From a virus: a DNA stretch of 64,000 nucleotides. Position 1 is the stretch's first letter, and every line of letters begins with the position of its first letter. This document shows, one piece after another, positions 1,978 to 60,269 of the stretch. The notes under the pieces were generated by a model. It was given only the letters and a program-made list of their open reading frames with translations. It was not told the DNA's origin and did not search any database. The position numbers and the translations under genes are program-made. The stretch is from positions 96,001 to 160,000 of the IMG/VR virus record IMGVR_UViG_3300010354_000044. The stretch is one strand, 5' to 3'.

Positions 1978-2280
1978 GTGTTTTCCATGTCTGAATCTTC
2001 AAAAGTTAACCCCTTGGAGCGGGGCCCTAAACCTCGCAAGACCACTGGTTTTGGGGCTGATTTTGTGCATCCGGTACTAGCCGCTTATGCGGCTGAAGGC
2101 AATCAAGAAGAGGGCTACGACATCAGCTTCTACATGCCTGAGGGTCCGCATATACACCCTGAATATAAGGAGGGTGGTCAGGAGAGTAAGAGCGCCGACA
2201 TAAGCGAGTATATGCCTGAGGGCCCGCACGTTTTCAAAGATCCTGGTGTCGTAGAGGATGAAGAGCACGTGGATTGCTAG
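1978..2280 (+). CDS. acidic low-complexity protein with duplicated DISxYMPEGPH motif
   Basis: Internal repeat DISFYMPEGPHI / DISEYMPEGPHV; GAGG SD suggests start at the downstream ATG. Confidence 0.65.
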   Translation: MFSMSESSKVNPLERGPKPRKTTGFGADFVHPVLAAYAAEGNQEEGYDISFYMPEGPHIHPEYKEGGQESKSADISEYMPEGPHVFKDPGVVEDEEHVDC

Positions 2281-2323
2281 CAGAAGTTAGACTCTCTGAA
2301 AACTGTTTAGAGTTGAGGTAATT

Positions 2324-2818
2324 ATGTCTTTACTAAAGTTTTATGTGGCTGGTCACGACCTGGACGCATGCCGTGTAATTGCGGCTAACTTACGGCTTAA
2401 AGGTTATGAAGTCGTATCTCGGTGGCTAGATGAGCCCATGCTTCCAACAAAGGAATACACCCCCGAAGAGAAAACACGCATTGCGACAATGGACATTGAA
2501 GATGTCCGTAGTTGCAACGTGCTTATAACTTTCTCCGCGGGCTTTAAGGTAGCTGGGGGTAAGTTCGTAGAAATAGGTGCAGCTATTATTCAAGGAAAGC
2601 CAGTCATTGCAATTGGTGGCGCGGATAGTATGTTGATGCACCACCCCTTAGTCCTCCATGTGGACACCTTCCAAGAAGCTATGGACTTAGTGGCTACTAA
2701 ATCGTTCTTGTCTAAAATAAATCAAGTGCCCGTAGAGCCTGAAGGGCCCATTTGCCAAGCTGATCTTACAAGTCCAGTCTACAAGGCCTATATGGAGGAG
2801 CGAGAGTATTTGATGTAA
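2324..2818 (+). CDS. nucleoside 2-deoxyribosyltransferase-like protein
   Basis: FYVAG...DIEDVRSCNVLI...GGKFVEIGAA...GKPVI motifs typical of the NDT/Rcl family. Confidence 0.8.
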   Translation: MSLLKFYVAGHDLDACRVIAANLRLKGYEVVSRWLDEPMLPTKEYTPEEKTRIATMDIEDVRSCNVLITFSAGFKVAGGKFVEIGAAIIQGKPVIAIGGADSMLMHHPLVLHVDTFQEAMDLVATKSFLSKINQVPVEPEGPICQADLTSPVYKAYMEEREYLM

Positions 2819-2869
2819 GCTGCTGATTGCCTTAAACCATTTCTATAAAACTACTGAGGAGGGTATACT

Positions 2870-3631
2870 ATGTCCATAAGAAAGAATGTTATTAAACTGC
2901 CGGAAGAAGCTGGATTGGCCATGATTCTTATTCCGGGCGGGACCTTTACTATGGGTTCGCCTAAGAGTGAGTTGGGGCATGAACGTGATGAAGAGCCTCA
3001 GCATATTGTTACCTTAGAGCCTTTCTTAATGGGAGAGCATTTAATTACGCAGCATCAATGGCGAGCTGTGGCCAGTCTACCCAAGGTAGAGCGAGAGTTG
3101 GATTCTAACCCCTCTAGATTTGAAAGGGGGAAGTTTGACGGTCATTACTGCCCTGTAGAGGGAGTGTCTTGGGATGATGCTGTAGAATTCTGTGCTCGTT
3201 TGTCCGCCCATAGCGGGCAACTTTATACCTTACCCAGCGAAGCTCAGTGGGAGTATGCTTGTCGGGCTGGTACTGAAAGCCCTTTCTATTTTGGCGATCT
3301 CCTGACTAATAAGGCTAACTACAATGAGTTCCATAAAGGGCCTACTGATGTTGGGAGCTTTCCCCCCAATGCTTTTGGCCTTTATGATATGCATGGTAAT
3401 GTCTGGGAGTGGTGCTTAGATACCGGGCACGACAACTATGAGGGAGCTCCGACTGATGGTAATGCTTGGTTGACTGGAGGGGATAGTTCCCGTCGTATAG
3501 TACGTGGTGGTTCTTGGACTGATGATCCTAGGGACTGTCGCTCTGCCTGTCGGCTCCGGGCCCGCCTTGATAAGCGTTCCGACGACTTTGGCTTTCGTAT
3601 TGTAAGTCCAGCGACTAGCACTCGGGGGTAA
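2870..3631 (+). CDS. FGE-sulfatase (C-type lectin fold) domain protein 1
   Basis: FTMGS, LPSEAQWEYACRAG, PNAFGLYDMHGNVWEWC, RGGSW...GFRIV. Confidence 0.93.
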   Translation: MSIRKNVIKLPEEAGLAMILIPGGTFTMGSPKSELGHERDEEPQHIVTLEPFLMGEHLITQHQWRAVASLPKVERELDSNPSRFERGKFDGHYCPVEGVSWDDAVEFCARLSAHSGQLYTLPSEAQWEYACRAGTESPFYFGDLLTNKANYNEFHKGPTDVGSFPPNAFGLYDMHGNVWEWCLDTGHDNYEGAPTDGNAWLTGGDSSRRIVRGGSWTDDPRDCRSACRLRARLDKRSDDFGFRIVSPATSTRG

Positions 3632-7533: not shown

Positions 7534-7869
7534 ATGGTTAAAATTACGTTGCAGCAGAATTTAGAAATGATTAAGAAAATCAGAGAATTGATAACTGGGC
7601 GCAGCGCCCTTGAAAGAGTCGTAACAGCAATTGACAGATTAGTTAGTGACTCAATGCTTGCCGGTAATTATGATCGCATACAAACTGGCGTACCCGAGGT
7701 TGCCAAAGGGCTAGATGCTGAGGATTACTCGTTGCTGTTGCGTGTCCTTAAGTATAAAATCCAAAGAGATAAAGCTCCAGCAGCTGCGCCCTTTTATGAA
7801 GAAGCACTTAAGTGCGCTATTGCATCCCGCCTTGATTATTTTGTTCTAGAGGATAGAGCTAATGGTTGA
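7534..7869 (+). CDS. hypothetical protein
   Basis: 111-aa ORF overlapping the next gene. Confidence 0.55.
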   Translation: MVKITLQQNLEMIKKIRELITGRSALERVVTAIDRLVSDSMLAGNYDRIQTGVPEVAKGLDAEDYSLLLRVLKYKIQRDKAPAAAPFYEEALKCAIASRLDYFVLEDRANG

Positions 7870-8887
7870 CTCCCAACAAAATGATAGTCGGTATCCGTAT
7901 ACCTACGCTTGGGACTACTTACGCGGTATCTGCGAAGGGAGTGTGTCAAGATCGGACGTCGCTAAAATAATGGAATTCTTAAGCGAGCTCTTGGGGAATG
8001 CCCTAAATCTCTCACCCAGCGAATTAGCTGAAGAGCTGGCAATTAAGATAGCTGACTATGCGCAGGCAAATCCTCATGACCCGCAAGTACTCGTAGACAA
8101 TGCTTCGCGGCGCCTCAATAAACCCACGATTACTGAAAAGGCCGATTCTATACAACCGGTGCCTGAAGTAATCACCATTAACCTACCAGGCGGGGTAGAG
8201 TTGGAAATGGTCGCTATTCCAGAAGGGAGTTTTCTCATGGGCTCCCCTGATGATGAACTAGGGCGTAGTAAAGACGAAGGTCCGCAGCATCAGGTGACTA
8301 TAGCTACCTTCCTAATGGGTAAATACCCTGTTACGCAGGCGCAGTGGCGTGCGGTAGCCGATCTGCCCCAGGTGGAATATTATCTGAATCCAGAGCCATC
8401 AAATTTTAAGGACGATAAATGCCCAGTTGAACAAATTACCTGGCATGAAGCTTTGGAATTTTGTGCTCGGTTATCCAAACTAACCGGTAAACCCTACACC
8501 CTCCCCAGTGAAGCCCAGTGGGAGTATGCTTGCCGGGCCGGTACCGCTACCCCATTTTACTTTGGCGAGACCCTTACCACTGACCTAGCTAATTACGATG
8601 GTGATTACATCTATGAACTCACCGAGGTGGGTAGTTTTCCTCCCAATGCCTTTGGCCTTTACGATATGCACGGCAATGTGTTTGAGTGGTGTTTAGATGT
8701 ATGGCATGAAACTTATGACGGTGCCCCGGTTGACGGAACTGCTTGGGTGACAGACGGGGACAGTTCCATTCGTGTACATCGTGGCGGTTCTTGGGACGAC
8801 GAACCTGGGAACTGTCGCTCCGCCTATCGGAGCAACGACTGGTCCTACAGCCGTGAGGCTTTTACCGGCTTTCGTATTGTGGTGTAA
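7862..8887 (+). CDS. FGE-sulfatase/CLec domain protein 2 with N-terminal RYPYTYA domain
   Basis: Same FGE motifs as 2870..3631; extra ~100-aa N-terminal region. Confidence 0.93.
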   Translation: MVDSQQNDSRYPYTYAWDYLRGICEGSVSRSDVAKIMEFLSELLGNALNLSPSELAEELAIKIADYAQANPHDPQVLVDNASRRLNKPTITEKADSIQPVPEVITINLPGGVELEMVAIPEGSFLMGSPDDELGRSKDEGPQHQVTIATFLMGKYPVTQAQWRAVADLPQVEYYLNPEPSNFKDDKCPVEQITWHEALEFCARLSKLTGKPYTLPSEAQWEYACRAGTATPFYFGETLTTDLANYDGDYIYELTEVGSFPPNAFGLYDMHGNVFEWCLDVWHETYDGAPVDGTAWVTDGDSSIRVHRGGSWDDEPGNCRSAYRSNDWSYSREAFTGFRIVV

Positions 8888-9219: not shown

Positions 9220-9993
9220 ATGGCTGAGGTAACTACAATTACCCTGCCTGGAAGGGTAGAGTTAAAAATGGTAGCTATTCCAGAAGGGAGCTTTCCCATG
9301 GGCTCCCCTGCAGATAACATTGGGTTTTACTATAACGAGGGGCCACAGCATCAAGTAACACTGAATTCTTTCCTCATGGGTAAATACCCAATTACCCAGG
9401 CTCAATGGCGGGCTGTAGCGACCTTACCAGAGATTGAGATTAGTCTAGACCCCGATCCTTCAGCCTTCAAGGGGGATAACCGCCCCGTAGAGCAGGTGAA
9501 CTGGCATGAAGCCTTAGAGTTCTGCTACAGACTGTCTACCTATACTGGTACTGTTTATACTTTACCTAGCGAGGCTCAGTGGGAGTATGCCTGCCGTGCT
9601 GGTACTACTACGGCGTTTCATTTCGGCGAGACAATTTCTACCAACCAAGCTAACTACAACGGTAGTTATATTTACGCTAATGGCCACAAAGGAGTCTGGC
9701 GGGAGGAGACGACTGAGGTGGGCATGTTTCCTGCAAACGCCTTTGGTCTCCATGACATGCACGGTAATGTGTACGAGTGGTGTTTAGATAACTATGAGAT
9801 CAGCTACCGAGGCGCTCCAACCGATGGAAGCGCCTGGAAGCGTAAGAAGAGCCCATGGGAGATTCGCCATATACTCCGTGGAGGCTCTTGGGTTGATGGC
9901 CCTTGGTATTGCCGTAGTGCCCAGCGAGGATTCCTTAAAGAGTTTGTTTCAGATAGTTATATTGGCTTTCGTGTTGTATGTCTGCTGAAGTAG
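9220..9993 (+). CDS. FGE-sulfatase/CLec domain protein 3
   Basis: LPSEAQWEYACRAG, NAFGLHDMHGNVYEWC, RGGSW...GFRVVC. Confidence 0.93.
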   Translation: MAEVTTITLPGRVELKMVAIPEGSFPMGSPADNIGFYYNEGPQHQVTLNSFLMGKYPITQAQWRAVATLPEIEISLDPDPSAFKGDNRPVEQVNWHEALEFCYRLSTYTGTVYTLPSEAQWEYACRAGTTTAFHFGETISTNQANYNGSYIYANGHKGVWREETTEVGMFPANAFGLHDMHGNVYEWCLDNYEISYRGAPTDGSAWKRKKSPWEIRHILRGGSWVDGPWYCRSAQRGFLKEFVSDSYIGFRVVCLLK

Positions 9994-13823: not shown

Positions 13824-14956
13824 GTGTACAAACAAAAACGTAAGCCCAAGAAGAGAGAAGTTGGTCGGCACAGCCCCGGCGCTCAGTCTCGGCTGGATAA
13901 GTTTGTACAGACCCATAGAGCAGAGAAGGAAGCTAATCCTCTGCCCTTGGATTTCTACCGCCCTATTTATCTCCCCAATAACTTCTGGGAGACTCTACGC
14001 AGCTACGGCAATCTGTACGTGTACGCACGTATGCTAGATAAAAAGGGCGCAGGGGTTGTTACCTTTAATACGGACTTTGCAGCGGGCGAGCTCTACATGA
14101 TGCCCCGGACGTGCAAAGATTATATCCGCACCTGCCTGCGGAAAGGTTTGTTTAGGCATATAGAGTGGTTAGACAAAACGACCGTCAAGGTCTATTACAA
14201 CTCTATGCCTAAGCTAATGTTGGGCTTAGAAGCAGAGTCCAACACTGAGATTCTCTTGGAGAGTCCGGAGGACATCCTGAGAAAAAAGTCCTGATTCCTG
14301 AGGATAGTGTCCTCAGGAAGCAGGAACAGAGTCAGTTTCGCGCTCAGCAGGAGCTGCGCACTAAGCTGCAGCAAAAGCTGAAAGACGAACTAAACGTAAG
14401 AAAGTTAGGTGCTGAAGGAGAAGAGCATGTAGAAAAAGAGTTTAAGGACCAAATGCTCACGCTTGCCGACTTCTTTAGAAAACCCTCTGTTAATGCCGGG
14501 GGCACTGTTTTGAAGAGGAAAAGTAAACGCCGAAAACGGCGGAATAAAGCTCTTATTTATCGCGGCAAGCGGTTCACGTTGGCGCATCCAGACGCCCCTC
14601 TGTTTGGAGCTACCCAGAAGGCGATCGGCTTAGAGATAGGCCGGGCCCGCAAGACTGTATCCCGACGGCTATCTAATAGCTATCGGGAGAAAGTGGCAAA
14701 GAAATATAAGATCACTATCAAACCCCTTCAGCGCACCCAGGTGTTAATCCATTTGGGTGATGCCGCTGCTGCAGAACAGGCCCAGCGAGAGTCGCTTGAG
14801 CGCCTCCCGATTGCGGTCTACAACGATAAATCTTATATTTGCCGGCCTAACGTCTACAAGGGGACAGCAGAGACACCAAGAAGCCAACGGCGGGTGCGTC
14901 AGCACCTTCGCCAACTTGAAGCTAAGCTACAAAAGCGTAGCTCCGATGATGCTTGA
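13824..14956 (+). CDS. HTH DNA-binding / putative replication-initiator protein expressed via -1 frameshift (156-aa short form, ~377-aa fusion)
   Basis: Frame 0 is 13824-14294; the -1 frame is open 14249-14956; wHTH-like segments in both halves (ATQKAIGLEIGRARKTVSRRL). Confidence 0.75.
14267..14319 (+). promoter_or_regulatory. programmed -1 ribosomal frameshift signal
   Basis: GGAGG 14267-71, 10 nt, A_AAA_AAG 14282-88 in frame, 6 nt, 10-bp hairpin TTCCTGAGGA-TAGTG-TCCTCAGGAA 14295-14319. Confidence 0.85.
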
Positions 14957-15014
14957 TTTTATCAAGCGTTGCTTCTTGGGTTTGGTTGCTTCAACACTAG
15001 CGCCCCTCCGCTAG

Positions 15015-15350
15015 GTTGTAGCAGCGAAGCGAAAAATTTATTGAAATAATATTTTCTTCGCTTCGCTGCTGGATTTTCAGCTCCGCCAGTTTTTTTTGGT
15101 GAGCTGCCCCGTGAAAAATTTTTTTATTATTTTTTTTTTGCGGGGCATGAAAGGGGGGTTATTCTTACACAAGGAAAAAGCTAGGGTATCCTTAGCTTGA
15201 TTTTTAGTGTAAAGTTATTTTTTATATTAATTTCGGGAATTAAGGGATTAAAGTTAAACCTATAGTTTTTGATAGGGGCTGCGCCCCTATCTTTTTTTTT
15301 GATTAACTTTCTAAATGTCCTTTAGAAGTTTGTATGGGTACAAACTGAAT
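15015..15350. other. non-coding AT-rich multi-hairpin region, putative replication origin
   Basis: About 7 inverted repeats including AGCAGCGAAGCGAA/TTCGCTTCGCTGCT; long T tracts; no ORF. Confidence 0.5.
15271..15300 (+). terminator. intrinsic terminator
   Basis: GATAGGGGC-TGC-GCCCCTATC followed by T9. Confidence 0.7.
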
Positions 15351-15354
15351 CAAC

Positions 15355-16838: not shown

Positions 16839-16865
16839 TTGTCTAAACCCTACCCCAAGGAAAAT

Positions 16866-19061
16866 ATGGCTACCATCAACCTGCTACCTAATTACCTTTA
16901 CCTCGCGTCAGGGCCCTCGGCGTCGGGTAAGAGCACAGCACTTAAGGGCCTGCCTGCAGGGGTAGTGGTGTCCTCAGACAGCTTGAGAACCCAAATATTC
17001 GGTCTTGAAGCTGATACTGTAGAGGGTAACCTACTAGCCCCTCCTAGCCTAAGACCCCGCCCTGTCAACGATAGCTTTATCTTTGACACCATGAGACAGA
17101 TCGTGGAGGCCCGTCTTAAAGCAGGACTGACAACAGTCGTAGACGCAACTTTGTTAACCGACCGTGACCGCAAGCAGTTCGTGGATATAGCTGCTAGCTA
17201 CAACGTCCCTGTTCAGATTTTGATCTGGGATGTTCCCGCCGAGCAGCTGACTACTAGAGATGCAGATCGTCAGTTCCGGGTAGGGGCTGAGGTTATCCAG
17301 CGACAACTGGAGCGCTTTGAGCGTACATCCCAGTACTCCTATATTGTAGACGACTACTTTGAGCTTGAAATAGCTCACCTAACAGTAGCTAGTAGCGTAG
17401 AACTGGATTTCGTGGGTGACATCCACGGCTGCTACGACCAGTTAATAGAACTGATTGAAAAGCTAGGCTATGTTATTGGCGAGGACGGTATTGCTAGGTA
17501 TGCTGGTAATGAGCCCCGGCGTCTGTGCTTTTTGGGCGACTATGTAGACCGAGGGCCCAAGTCCTTAGAGGTACTCAAATTCATTTACCGGAATACGCCT
17601 ACGCATTGGGCGTTGCTGGGGAACCATGATAGTAACCTTCTCAAGGGGTTGCTAGGAAAACCCGTAACCTCCAAGGCCACACAGGAGACCCTCCATGAAG
17701 TGATGGTCGCCAAGGCGGAGAAGTGGGTTACAGAGCTACTGACCTCACTGCCTCGTTATCTAACCTGGCGGAATGTCGTTATTTGCCATGCCGACATCCA
17801 GAGGCTTAACTTACCTCAGGAGACAACTCAGTGCGTTTACGGTTGTAGTAAACTGAACAGGCCTATAAACGCCGATGAAATCTGGAGTAAGACTGAGAAG
17901 CGCCTGCTTATCCGCGGTCACTTTACTCCTGACCACGAGTACGATAACGTCATTACCCTGGACGGTAATCCGGGCTATGGCGGTACTATTAAAGCAGGGC
18001 GTTTTGCTGTTGCTCAAGTTGCGGGTCGGAAGCATGATAACTTCTTAATCCAGCAATGGATTGAATTCTCATTAGGGCCTACGGAAGATTATGAAGAACG
18101 CAAGAAGACTGTAATAGGTTTTCGCCTTGCCGCTATGCCAAAAGAGTTGGTTAGCACGGCTACATCGCCTTGCGGCCACCTCAAGCTGTTTAAATACACG
18201 CCTAATGCCTTTAGACAGTCCTTTAAATCTGAAGGGCCTTGGCTGGAGTACCCTGACCTTAAGTACGCCCGAGGCCTTGTCGTAGGCCTTAACCACCAAC
18301 CGGTGAACACGGTCTTTCCTAAAATTCCTAGTTACACCGAAGGAATTGATCCGAGCAAGCAGGTGATTGCCGCGACAAAGTTGAACGGCTTTCTCCTAGC
18401 TACATTCAGACATCCTTACAAAGAGGATGTGGTCTTCACTACTACCGGGTCGTTTGACTCTGAGTACGTAAAGATGGGCCGTGCATTGTTCTACAAGCAC
18501 GCAAAACAGTCTCGGCAGCAGCTCCTAAACAGCCCGGGATTGACATTCTTGTGGGAGGTTATAGACCCTAATAAAGACCAAAATGTCCACCCTATTGCCT
18601 CGTCCGCAGGCATCTACCTAATTGCTGTAGGGCAAAATGGGGTAATCCTCCCCGAGGAGGAGATGCAAAGCTACGCCGGCAACTTGAATGTCAACTGTGC
18701 CAGTCATGTACAGACTGACTTCGGGTCAGTCCTAGAAATGGCCCGCACCAGCGACGGCGAGGGCTATATGATTAGGGACTTGGAAGGTAACTACCTTGCA
18801 AAGCTCAAATCACCGTTTTACCTGACTGTCAAGAAGTTTATGCGTCTATCGCCAAAGGCGGGCGCACAGCTCTTTAACGACCCTATTAATTTCAACTTTG
18901 AGTATATTTGGCAGCAGTGCATGGACAACCCTTATGCCAACGACCTTTATACCCGGCAGACAGCTATCGCCGAAGCTATCCGAACACACTTTTCCTGTGA
19001 AACTTGGCAACAAGCAGATAGTTTAACCCGTAGAGAATTTCTCTATCGCATGTTAAGCTAA
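16866..19061 (+). CDS. polynucleotide kinase / metallophosphoesterase / RNA ligase (RNA repair fusion)
   Basis: GPSASGKS P-loop and DAT; GDIHG, GDYVDRG, GNHD; ligase motifs KLNG, FLWE, EGYM, KLKS; AAGGA SD before ATG 16866. Confidence 0.88.
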   Translation: MATINLLPNYLYLASGPSASGKSTALKGLPAGVVVSSDSLRTQIFGLEADTVEGNLLAPPSLRPRPVNDSFIFDTMRQIVEARLKAGLTTVVDATLLTDRDRKQFVDIAASYNVPVQILIWDVPAEQLTTRDADRQFRVGAEVIQRQLERFERTSQYSYIVDDYFELEIAHLTVASSVELDFVGDIHGCYDQLIELIEKLGYVIGEDGIARYAGNEPRRLCFLGDYVDRGPKSLEVLKFIYRNTPTHWALLGNHDSNLLKGLLGKPVTSKATQETLHEVMVAKAEKWVTELLTSLPRYLTWRNVVICHADIQRLNLPQETTQCVYGCSKLNRPINADEIWSKTEKRLLIRGHFTPDHEYDNVITLDGNPGYGGTIKAGRFAVAQVAGRKHDNFLIQQWIEFSLGPTEDYEERKKTVIGFRLAAMPKELVSTATSPCGHLKLFKYTPNAFRQSFKSEGPWLEYPDLKYARGLVVGLNHQPVNTVFPKIPSYTEGIDPSKQVIAATKLNGFLLATFRHPYKEDVVFTTTGSFDSEYVKMGRALFYKHAKQSRQQLLNSPGLTFLWEVIDPNKDQNVHPIASSAGIYLIAVGQNGVILPEEEMQSYAGNLNVNCASHVQTDFGSVLEMARTSDGEGYMIRDLEGNYLAKLKSPFYLTVKKFMRLSPKAGAQLFNDPINFNFEYIWQQCMDNPYANDLYTRQTAIAEAIRTHFSCETWQQADSLTRREFLYRMLS

Positions 19062-57447: not shown

Positions 57448-58843
57448 AGGTCAAGCCTTTAACTATATTACGGATGGAGCCCAGTTAGCCGCTGGGCTTC
57501 ACCGTTTAAAGGCTTCAGGATCAGAATTGGCATTAGATACAGAGACAGGGATTAGACCCGAATGGCGTAATAAGGTTACTGAATCTCGCGGCGATCCAAT
57601 TCAGCCTCGTCTATGTCCCCACTTAGGGCATATTTGCCTGCTAACCTTAACCCCAGTTAATGGCAAACCTGAGGTTTTTGATTTTGTGTGGTTGCGGCAT
57701 AACAAAGTAGATTTAAATCCTATCTACGAATTACTAGAGCAAAAGACCTTAATCGCGCACAAAGCGCAGTTTGATGGAAAAATGCTACTAGGAGAATTCA
57801 AAAAGAATACACTTCGTTGGTGGTGTACCCTTCAGGCAGACAAAGTCCTAAGTAACGCCACAGGCAGTAAGTATGGTCTAATCCGCGGCCATTCTCTTTA
57901 CTCCTGCTTACGAGATTACCTAGGTATTACCTTAAAGGGTAAGGGAAGTATTCAAACTCAGGATTGGGATCTAGACCTTGAAAAACGGACGTTGGATAAT
58001 CCGTATTGGCTAGAGATGCTTAACTATGCTGCTGCGGACACTAGATACCTACACCAGCTAAAAGCTAAATTAGAAGGGTGGATATGTAATCCACTGCCTA
58101 GTGACTGGATGAACCGACACGACACCCCAGATGAGGCCTGTGGGTTTGGTATGGCGCGTACCATGCAGCTAGAGAACGACATGATTAATATCTACATAGA
58201 AATGGAATATTACGGTTTTCCTACTTCTATAGATTTAATTAAAGAGTTTCAGGAAGGGATAGAGATTGAAATGTATGACCTTGCCTGCGACCTCTGTGAT
58301 CTCCTAGGTATTGAGTTACCTCCGCCTGATTTAGGTTTGGACTATATAAAACCATACCCCAAAACTCTTAAGGTTTTTAATAACCCGACTAAGGTTGTTG
58401 AACTCCTTAATGAACATAAGATCGTTACCGATAACGCTCAGAAATTAACCTTAACCCGGGTCTTAAGTTTGATGGATGAAATCTATAAACAACAGACTAC
58501 AGAGGGTAGCGATCAAGGTATTAGTTACCTCAATGACGAAGAAGAGTCCAGATATAAACTTATAGAAGACTATGAGTTATCTGACCTTGTACAAGGAAGT
58601 AAAATCCTTAATACGTTGCTACAGTATAAAAGGGCTGTAAAACAACATGGCATGAGTATGCTCCGGTTTGTTAATCCAGCTACCGGCAATATTCATCCGG
58701 ATGTTAAAGGCCCTGTATCCACTGGGCGCATGGCTATGGGGAGCCCTAACCTGCAGCAAGTATCTAATTCTAGTAAAGTACTTATAGAGTTGGATATTGT
58801 AGATGGCACTATTCAGCACTACAGTAGTAGTAAGTTAGTTTAA
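57437..58843 (+). CDS. polA: DNA polymerase family A, N-terminal piece (3'-5' exonuclease, thumb, start of palm)
   Basis: LDTET, HKAQFD, YAAAD, MEYYG, TGNIHP, TGRMAMGSPNLQQV then stop. Confidence 0.88.
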   Translation: MEVKGQAFNYITDGAQLAAGLHRLKASGSELALDTETGIRPEWRNKVTESRGDPIQPRLCPHLGHICLLTLTPVNGKPEVFDFVWLRHNKVDLNPIYELLEQKTLIAHKAQFDGKMLLGEFKKNTLRWWCTLQADKVLSNATGSKYGLIRGHSLYSCLRDYLGITLKGKGSIQTQDWDLDLEKRTLDNPYWLEMLNYAAADTRYLHQLKAKLEGWICNPLPSDWMNRHDTPDEACGFGMARTMQLENDMINIYIEMEYYGFPTSIDLIKEFQEGIEIEMYDLACDLCDLLGIELPPPDLGLDYIKPYPKTLKVFNNPTKVVELLNEHKIVTDNAQKLTLTRVLSLMDEIYKQQTTEGSDQGISYLNDEEESRYKLIEDYELSDLVQGSKILNTLLQYKRAVKQHGMSMLRFVNPATGNIHPDVKGPVSTGRMAMGSPNLQQVSNSSKVLIELDIVDGTIQHYSSSKLV

Positions 58844-59316: not shown

Positions 59317-60269
59317 TGGAGCTATTCTTTGAGTGCGCCCCTAAGAATATATTCCTAGCACCCCCAGGCTACTTCTGGTCCGGATTAGATTACAGCGGGC
59401 AAGAGCTCATGATCAGCGCTGTTGTGTCAGGCGATACAACGATGCTGGAAGCCTTTAGACAGCCAGAGCTAAAACCGCACCCAGAGACCGGAGAGCTCTG
59501 CCCAAACCCCTACGCGGACTTACATACAATTACAACCAGAAGCGCAGTCTTTCCTAAAATATTCGAAGGCCATGAGTGGTATGACTGGGTGAAGATAGCT
59601 AAAACTTACAAAGTGCCTAACTTTACAGAGGCGCCCCGTCAGTACGGGAAAAAGACGAATTTCTCGGCTATCTATTTATGTAACGCACCTACGCTAGCCA
59701 TTAACTTAGGCATTCCTGAGCAGCTAGCAGGAAACATTCTACAAGGCCATCGTAAAACCTATGCCGGATACTACCACTGGGCAGAGCAACAAGGGGCTAT
59801 TGGGGAGGCCTGTGGGTGGATTAGCACTCCTTGGCTAAAGCGTGTCCGGGGAGTCCATGAAGCTAATGCTAAAGGAGGAGGGTCAGCAAAGCTGCTAGCT
59901 CCTAATGTTTGCATTCAGGGGACAGGGGCCGATATTGCGAAGGCGGCTATGTGTAGAATATTCCGCTGGAAAGAGAAGCTCAATAAGCCTATAGAGTTTG
60001 CAAAACGCCCTCGTTTAATCGGACAGGTTCATGACGAGTTAGTACCACTTATTCCTGGAAAGTGCACGTTAAACCTGGATAAATCTAAGCTAGAGGAACG
60101 TGATAACATGACAGTTGTTACAAAGGCTTGTTGGGATGTACCCGAGGCATCCTATGAATTAGCCTTACAAATCCGTCAGATAATGATTGATGTCGAAACG
60201 GAGGCCTTTGATGGTGTATTGGAAGGTCGGGTAGATATGCCAAACCCAGCCCCCTGGTGGTCAAAATAA
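59316..60269 (+). CDS. polA: DNA polymerase family A, C-terminal catalytic piece
   Basis: Motif A DYSGQE, motif B RQYGKKTNFSAIY, IQGTGAD, motif C VHDE. Confidence 0.92.
   Translation: MELFFECAPKNIFLAPPGYFWSGLDYSGQELMISAVVSGDTTMLEAFRQPELKPHPETGELCPNPYADLHTITTRSAVFPKIFEGHEWYDWVKIAKTYKVPNFTEAPRQYGKKTNFSAIYLCNAPTLAINLGIPEQLAGNILQGHRKTYAGYYHWAEQQGAIGEACGWISTPWLKRVRGVHEANAKGGGSAKLLAPNVCIQGTGADIAKAAMCRIFRWKEKLNKPIEFAKRPRLIGQVHDELVPLIPGKCTLNLDKSKLEERDNMTVVTKACWDVPEASYELALQIRQIMIDVETEAFDGVLEGRVDMPNPAPWWSK

Follow-up and report, generated by a model that had tools for sequence, protein, structure and literature searches.

The window analyzed here is a 64,000-nucleotide stretch of DNA comprising bases 96001-160000 of a 171,984-bp IMG/VR virus record, which has a completeness of approximately 87%. 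The source is a freshwater phage, and its host is probably a cyanobacterium. In public gene calls, the locus under study appears as two hypothetical proteins of 156 and 167 amino acids (aa), unrelated to each other, and 55 codons are overlooked. The features of the locus are collected in Table 1. At the end of the first open reading frame (ORF1), the frame 0 codons are AGA AAA AAG TCC TGA (14280-14294), and the heptamer that they contain has the phase X_XXY_YYZ. The -1 frame is free of stop codons from 14249 to 14956 and has its earliest ATG, GTG, or TTG at 14453; none of the three occurs in the 165 nt that separate the slip site from this first ATG of "ORF2". Reading from ORF1 into the -1 frame gives a fusion with the junction peptide LRKK/VLIPEDSVLR, where the slash marks the change of frame.

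Table 1. Features of the frameshifted phage gene, in positions of the window.
Feature	Position	Strand	Description
Whole gene	13824..14956	+	155 codons in frame 0 and 222 codons in frame -1; predicted full-length protein of 377 aa
ORF1	13824..14294	+	Frame 0, GTG start; 156-aa product of standard decoding, with a basic N-terminal tail and a winged-helix domain
GGAGG, internal Shine-Dalgarno (SD)-like element	14267..14271	+	10 nt 5' of the heptamer; identical in all haplotypes
Slippery heptamer A_AAA_AAG	14282..14288	+	In phase with ORF1; identical in all haplotypes
Frame 0 stop	14292..14294	+	TGA here; TAA in two other haplotypes
Hairpin, putative stimulator	14295..14319	+	Perfect stem of 10 bp around a loop of 5 nt; starts 6 nt past the heptamer
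-1 frame segment missed by gene callers	14288..14452	+	55 codons; motif ...IPE......KQEQSQF and a long connecting helix
C-terminal domain containing a helix-turn-helix (HTH) ("ORF2")	14453..14956	+	Listed by gene callers as a separate 167-aa ORF

A first-pass annotation, made from the sequence alone, had described a slippery heptamer in the phase of ORF1, an SD-like GGAGG before it, a perfect 10-bp hairpin after it, and an open -1 frame with 55 overlooked codons. All of these were found at the positions and spacings given above, the hairpin both in the sequence and by RNA folding, and an in silico fusion reproduced the junction peptide as it had been written. The arms of the hairpin, TTCCTGAGGA (14295-14304) and TCCTCAGGAA (14310-14319), pair perfectly over 10 bp around the 5-nt loop, and a lower stem of 5 bp lengthens the structure to 14289-14325. 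Folding of the 81 nt at 14260-14340 gave -33.3 kcal/mol (z = -4.8), and none of 200 shuffled sequences was equally stable. AAAAAAG heptamers occur 33 times in the 172-kb genome compared to approximately 32 expected, and the strongest downstream fold among these 33 sites (-25.5 kcal/mol over 45 nt) is that of the slip site. All three elements of a dnaX/IS3-type signal (heptamer, SD, and structure) are present at canonical spacing and phase. In E. coli, this heptamer is the one most prone to shifting and occurs naturally in dnaX (Atkins et al. 2016, PMC5009743). The hairpin was also considered as an intrinsic terminator, which was ruled out since no run of T follows it.

The run of six A residues (A6) in the heptamer was compared among independent assemblies. 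It was the same in the source record, in an ENA assembly contig, in a Logan assembly of another run, and in JGI metagenome contigs. The ENA copy, a 151-kb contig, had no difference over the gene region. The Logan copy (L003) was 92.6% identical, and a JGI metagenome copy, which was also binned into an NCBI metagenome-assembled genome, was 96% identical. A further JGI contig had matching gene calls of 156 and 167 aa, and a lake-metagenome contig from yet another run covered 14216-14356 with four substitutions and no indel. Every copy for which DNA was available had A6, a frame 0 stop (TGA or TAA), and the hairpin. At the level of contigs rather than raw reads, A6 was present in all copies compared and A7 in none, and the agreement of these independent assemblies effectively excludes an assembly error in the run, which had been raised as a concern at the outset.

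These copies represent three haplotypes that are 91.5-96% identical over the gene. All three retained A6, the frame 0 stop, the upper stem of the hairpin, and the open -1 frame, without indels there. Only two substitutions were found among the haplotypes at 14263-14348, both synonymous in the -1 frame; the change of the frame 0 stop from TGA to TAA is synonymous in that frame (CTG to CTA). The upper stem was invariant, and the downstream fold ranged from -21.8 to -25.5 kcal/mol across the three haplotypes. All frameshifted copies are at least 91.5% identical, and the conservation of the signal covers little evolutionary time. Viral and metagenome contigs scanned with the back-translated sequence of each half contained no intermediate relatives, nor did the results of word-index searches, which consisted of the near-identical clade alone, and blastn of the locus against phage and plasmid collections produced no match. 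The frameshifted gene has one fixed position in the syntenic phage genomes. Two contigs from RNA libraries mapped solely to 14459-14999, beyond the slip site, and gave no sign of transcripts that cross the site or contain A7.

Substitutions among the three haplotypes were used to assess selection along the gene. The ratio of nonsynonymous to synonymous changes (pN/pS) was 0.08-0.13 for ORF1 and approximately 0.38 for 14453-14953, which indicates that both halves are under purifying selection. The sole indel among the haplotypes is a 3-nt, in-frame indel in L003, within the C-terminal part. In the 165-nt segment after the slip site, the -1 frame had a pN/pS of 0.33 (Fisher p 0.003) and was free of stops in every haplotype; the other two frames of the segment had pN/pS values of 0.6-1.5 and contained 4-6 stops. 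The openness of the linker is by itself uninformative, as 84% of permutations in which the observed substitutions were placed at random also remained free of stops, and the pN/pS of the variable part of the linker alone was marginal by permutation (p 0.06). Just past the ORF1 stop, only 1 of 54 columns was variable (14295-14348), compared to 28-29% of columns in the linker next to it and in the intergenic spacer upstream of the gene; the binomial probability of such conservation over 54 nt is approximately 3e-4 or less at a rate of at least 18%. By these patterns, the start-less 165 nt evolve like a coding region, and do so in no frame other than -1. With no canonical start codon in it, 14288-14452 can be translated only by ribosomes that come from ORF1 in the -1 frame.

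Searches of Pfam, PHROGs, and NCBIfam with both halves returned nothing above threshold, and a profile search of PDB sequences returned nothing meaningful. With the -1 frame part as the query, HMMER returned ten matches among 1.84 billion representative sequences. Eight of the ten were proteins of 282-350 aa that matched through their C-terminal halves (phmmer E values for the C-terminal part were 4e-17 to 1e-4), and the N-terminal halves of these proteins resemble ORF1. The distant homologs, at 21-38% identity, are single uninterrupted ORFs. For alignment, the sequence of the -1 fusion was built in silico. From end to end and across the junction, it was collinear with P0011-P0018, which are single-ORF homologs, as well as with 15 copies from genomes. 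Because the fusion aligns across the junction with uninterrupted homologs, ORF1 and "ORF2" are the two halves of one ancestral gene. The junction LLESPEDILRKK/VLIPEDSVLRKQEQSQF falls on the family pattern LLSPEDLKFKKAIIPEAIVKAKQQQSF, and LRKK/VLIPEDSVLRKQEQSQF likewise fits the pattern LKFKKAIIPEA..KQxQSF. The ATG at 14453, from which gene callers begin "ORF2", encodes an internal Met that is conserved in the family and aligns with a Met in P0010, P0012, P0013, and P0014. In a profile search of cyanobacterial genomes, the module was present in 12 of 401, never with internal stops, at E values down to 1e-107. The gene annotation is accordingly corrected from two listed hypothetical proteins to one gene.

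The uninterrupted copies were also compared to the phage gene at the homologous place for the elements of the signal. The A_AAA_AAG heptamer, the GGAGG, and a comparable hairpin were absent there in all 15 copies. At the position of the slip site, the homologs have AAG AAG, C_AAA_AAG, G_AAA_AAG, or codons for residues other than Lys. The downstream 45-nt fold in the 15 homologs was -2.5 to -14.2 kcal/mol, compared to -25.5 kcal/mol here. The residues SPED or PE are common to the homologs, which encode them without GGAGG; SPED is TCG CCT GAA GAC in one homolog and AGT CCG GAG GAC in the phage gene, and it is the latter spelling that creates the GGAGG. Since the 15 uninterrupted copies lack the heptamer, the GGAGG, and a strong fold, the signal coincides with the break in the frame. 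The first-pass annotation had looked to homologs that are in-frame fusions as a check on its reading; such homologs exist, and the slip signal was found only where the frame is broken. One cyanobacterial copy, L010 (4001-5000), has lost single bases within a G-run and close to its 3' end and has no slip signal. That copy is an ordinary pseudogene or lesion, or a sequencing error, and stands in contrast to the phage gene.

In an AlphaFold model of the homolog P0013 (pLDDT 92.6), the winged helix at the N-terminus is followed by a helix of 35 residues, which starts at the junction, and then by an HTH/beta domain at the C-terminus. Residues 18-84 of P0013, which are homologous to part of ORF1, form a winged helix with Z scores of 7-9 to many winged HTH (wHTH) structures. 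In a model of the -1 frame part from the window, a helix spans residues 3-35 and begins at the first shifted codon; its pLDDT was 86-94 over residues 1-30 and lower beyond, and that of the HTH region was approximately 90. The 55 overlooked codons had been called coiled-coil-like; what was modeled is a long helix. Because the junction is the start of the long inter-domain helix in both models, the short product is predicted to end at the boundary between two folded domains.

Taken together, these data make it likely that this gene, through a programmed -1 ribosomal frameshift, yields two proteins, a winged-helix protein of 156 aa and a full-length one of 377 aa. The proposal of the first-pass annotation, that a single coding unit is split by a -1 frame change at a three-part signal, gains strong support from the uninterrupted homologs, from the coincidence of signal and break, and from selection on the intervening segment. 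Most ribosomes would remain in frame 0 and stop at the TGA at 14292, which would give a protein carrying the winged-helix domain alone. Some ribosomes would pause on A_AAA_AAG, where they would be retained by pairing of the GGAGG 10 nt upstream with the anti-SD sequence and by the 10-bp hairpin 6 nt downstream. Two tRNA-Lys would then slip back by one base, and translation would continue in the -1 frame to 14956, with the junction DILRKK-VLIPEDSV in the 377-aa product. The slippage itself, the ratio of the products, and any role of the short form are what we infer from this arrangement.

More than one other scenario was weighed. The break could be a recent inactivating deletion (A7 to A6) in the ancestor of the clade, leaving either a pseudogene or a split gene in which "ORF2" is translated from the ATG at 14453, with the SD, heptamer, and hairpin present by coincidence. 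Homopolymer indels do occur in the family, as in copy L010, which is broken in a G-run, and the frameshifted copies are all close relatives. However, three independent signal elements lie at canonical spacing exactly at the break and in none of the 15 intact homologs, and purifying selection is seen on both halves and on the start-less 165 nt. No stop or indel has appeared across the break although the haplotypes differ at 28-29% of neutral-like columns, and A7, which would restore a plain fusion, is in no haplotype or assembly. A separate start at 14453 is structurally conceivable, since in the models it lies just past the linker helices and could begin a stand-alone C-terminal domain, and AAGGA is present 5 nt before this ATG in the window; yet the AAGGA is lost in L003 (AAGCA), and the Met encoded at 14453 is an internal conserved residue of the family. 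We therefore regard a deletion of this kind as quite unlikely.

Alternatively, RNA polymerase could add an A in the A6 run, and the resulting A7 mRNA would encode the identical fusion (RKKVLIPE) in frame with no ribosomal frameshifting. Where transcriptional slippage is known to be productive, the same base is repeated approximately 9 times or more, and a run of six A is short by comparison. In addition, the SD-like element and the hairpin would have no role in it, yet the broken copies conserve both and are the only ones to have them. There is precedent, as some insertion sequence (IS) elements and Thermus dnaX use slippage on A/T runs (Atkins et al. 2016, PMC5009743), but we consider it extremely unlikely to be the mechanism here. 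A further scenario concerns the hairpin only, in that the 10-bp inverted repeat could be a DNA-level operator for a dimeric HTH protein, possibly the product of the gene itself, or another DNA or RNA signal whose position is incidental. Its perfect 10-N5-10 palindrome has the shape of a typical operator and the gene does encode HTH domains. The half-site TTCCTGAGGA, though, occurs once in the 172-kb genome, copies with one mismatch are scattered, and none of them is in the non-coding 14957-15354. An operator would also leave the frame break, the heptamer, and the SD unexplained, and does not conflict with frameshifting; as an explanation in place of frameshifting it is very unlikely.

The function of the family was considered from its genomic context and predicted fold. 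In most genomic homologs, the module is the C-terminal part of proteins of 500-580 aa that have an N-terminal Prim-Pol domain (PF09250). In one locus (L015), a fusion of Prim-Pol and the two-HTH module adjoins a tyrosine integrase (209-862 and 1357-2916), which suggests that this locus is an integrative mobile element with its own primase-initiator. Stand-alone copies adjoin Xis-like and XRE-like HTH genes in variable, defense-rich regions. The stand-alone homolog in Nodosilinea sp. LEGE 07298 (L014, 1196-2146) is directly followed by a 14-repeat CRISPR array (2261-3300) with a repeat of approximately 37 nt and a spacing of 72-78 nt. Homologs in two other loci (L012 and L013) are 2 kb from WYL and Cas3, and those in L009 and L010 are beside a type I restriction-modification system.

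Whole-chain Foldseek comparison to the PDB placed RepE54, Rep 8ac8, and Pi in the top rows, with weak scores (E 0.018-0.13, TM 0.28-0.47). Over the plasmid initiators (RepE, Pi, and RepA of pPS10) and phage O-type proteins as a group, E was 0.02-0.3 and TM 0.3-0.47, and generic wHTH regulators score like RepE and Pi in this fold matching. The N-terminal domain alone is a generic winged helix, and VIA-align rows for residues 18-84 were generic wHTH proteins. Rows from BFVD included "Replication protein O", "Replication initiator", and "Replisome organizer", which were weak but recurrent; the best BFVD rows (E 2.5e-5 to 5.6e-4) were unnamed viral HTH proteins. Look-alikes in the ESM Atlas were viral HTH_36 proteins, which we treat as a lead only. 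The first-pass annotation had labeled the fusion a putative replication initiator. Such a role is plausible, since cyanobacterial elements have the module fused to Prim-Pol and its fold weakly resembles those of RepE, Pi, and O-like proteins. Our best guess, which could fall either way, is that in mobile elements the family recognizes the origin or controls replication, by binding DNA at an origin or a control site.

Among the neighboring genes, 8 had no Pfam match and 10 had no PHROG match, and searches of the phage genome returned no match to Prim-Pol, DnaB, or PolB. PolA is present in the phage, 44 kb from the frameshifted gene. This only DNA polymerase A match is spread over two open frames of 487 and 322 aa (window 58565-58771 and 59343-60062), so the phage polA may be split or interrupted. 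Directly downstream of the frameshifted gene (14957-15354) is an ORF-free stretch of approximately 400 nt with several hairpins, which had been described as origin-like. It contains an inverted repeat at 15020-15070 with 23-nt arms that are 87% complementary, and a weak 10-nt repeat, GCTTGATTTT, in three copies. Two of the hairpins, at 15178-15198 and 15271-15291, are followed by T-runs and look like ordinary terminators. Elsewhere in the window, a 740-aa protein (16839-19061) has AAA_33 kinase and calcineurin-like phosphoesterase domains and a long C-terminal extension, a Pnkp-like layout that suggests RNA repair. Two paralogous proteins with FGE-sulfatase (formylglycine-generating-enzyme-like) domains are encoded at 7862-8887 and 9220-9993.

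The phage also carries a tRNA-Lys(UUU), identified by aragorn at 94004-94074 of the record, approximately 2 kb before base 1 of the window and 16 kb upstream of the gene. Four more tRNAs (Met, Arg-UCU, Thr-UGU, and Pro-UGG) were identified in the phage genome by the same program. The tRNA-Lys(UUU) reads both codons of the slip site, and A_AAA_AAG is far less shifty given a tRNA-Lys(CUU), which in a host that has one would be a point against the proposed shift. It is conceivable, though we think it unlikely, that the frameshift is a regulatory device of an origin-binding or replication-control protein, in which the winged-helix-only default form would antagonize or tune the full-length form, and the ratio would be set during infection by the phage tRNA-Lys(UUU). 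If true, a virus would here be adjusting how efficiently its own message is recoded, by means of a tRNA that it carries.

Programmed frameshifts in tailed phages are documented mostly in tail-chaperone and capsid genes, and to our knowledge few well-supported ones are in phage genes of the DNA-binding or replication type. The mechanism proposed here is already well known, and the phage gene is a clean new example of it with a traceable origin. The uninterrupted homologs provide a comparison in which SD, heptamer, and hairpin arise together with the break in the frame. The analysis also defines a previously unnamed two-HTH module, which mobile elements of cyanobacteria join to Prim-Pol primases. 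SD pairing is used sparingly by cyanobacteria, a point against the proposed shift, and the gene offers a compact test case for SD-stimulated frameshifting in a probable cyanobacterial host.

The uncharacterized cyanobacterial two-HTH proteins (e.g., hypothetical protein IQ273_31810 of Nodosilinea sp. LEGE 07298) are homologous to the phage protein over the whole module of 260-300 aa, and share with it the junction motif, an RFTFV strand, and a GRSxRTVxRRLS helix-turn-helix. In contrast to the phage gene, all of them are uninterrupted, and most genomic copies have an N-terminal Prim-Pol (PF09250), which the phage protein lacks. RepE, Pi, RepA of pPS10, and phage O-type proteins likewise have two winged-helix/HTH DNA-binding domains in one protein of 220-300 aa; however, neither Rep_3 nor any other Rep family matched the phage protein in sequence. 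The CyRepA-type Rep of cyanobacterial plasmids was considered as a relative and rejected, as it has a different architecture (DUF3854 and DEXDc; PMC10079941).

The product logic is shared with the OrfA/OrfAB arrangement of the IS3 family (IS911 and IS150), in which a short frame 0 HTH protein is made by default and a long fusion by a -1 shift, with A_AAA_AAG near the end of the first ORF, an SD on the 5' side, and a structure on the 3' side. The phage family differs in having no DDE/RNase-H transposase domain. There was no DDE (rve) domain in the window protein or its homologs, for which Pfam matches were of HTH type only, and there were no terminal inverted repeats bracketing 13824-14956 beyond short chance matches. 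The earlier view that the locus is not an obvious IS therefore stands, and the gene resembles an IS3 element in its signal without being an IS. The signal itself is also that of E. coli dnaX, which has the same heptamer, an SD-like element 10 nt upstream, and a stem-loop approximately 6 nt downstream (PMC5009743). Like dnaX, which encodes tau and gamma, the phage gene would be one gene of DNA metabolism giving two proteins with a common N-terminus, although the proteins are unrelated. In dnaX, the shifted ribosome halts almost at once and frameshifting yields the short protein, whereas in the phage gene standard decoding stops two codons past the site and frameshifting would yield the long one.
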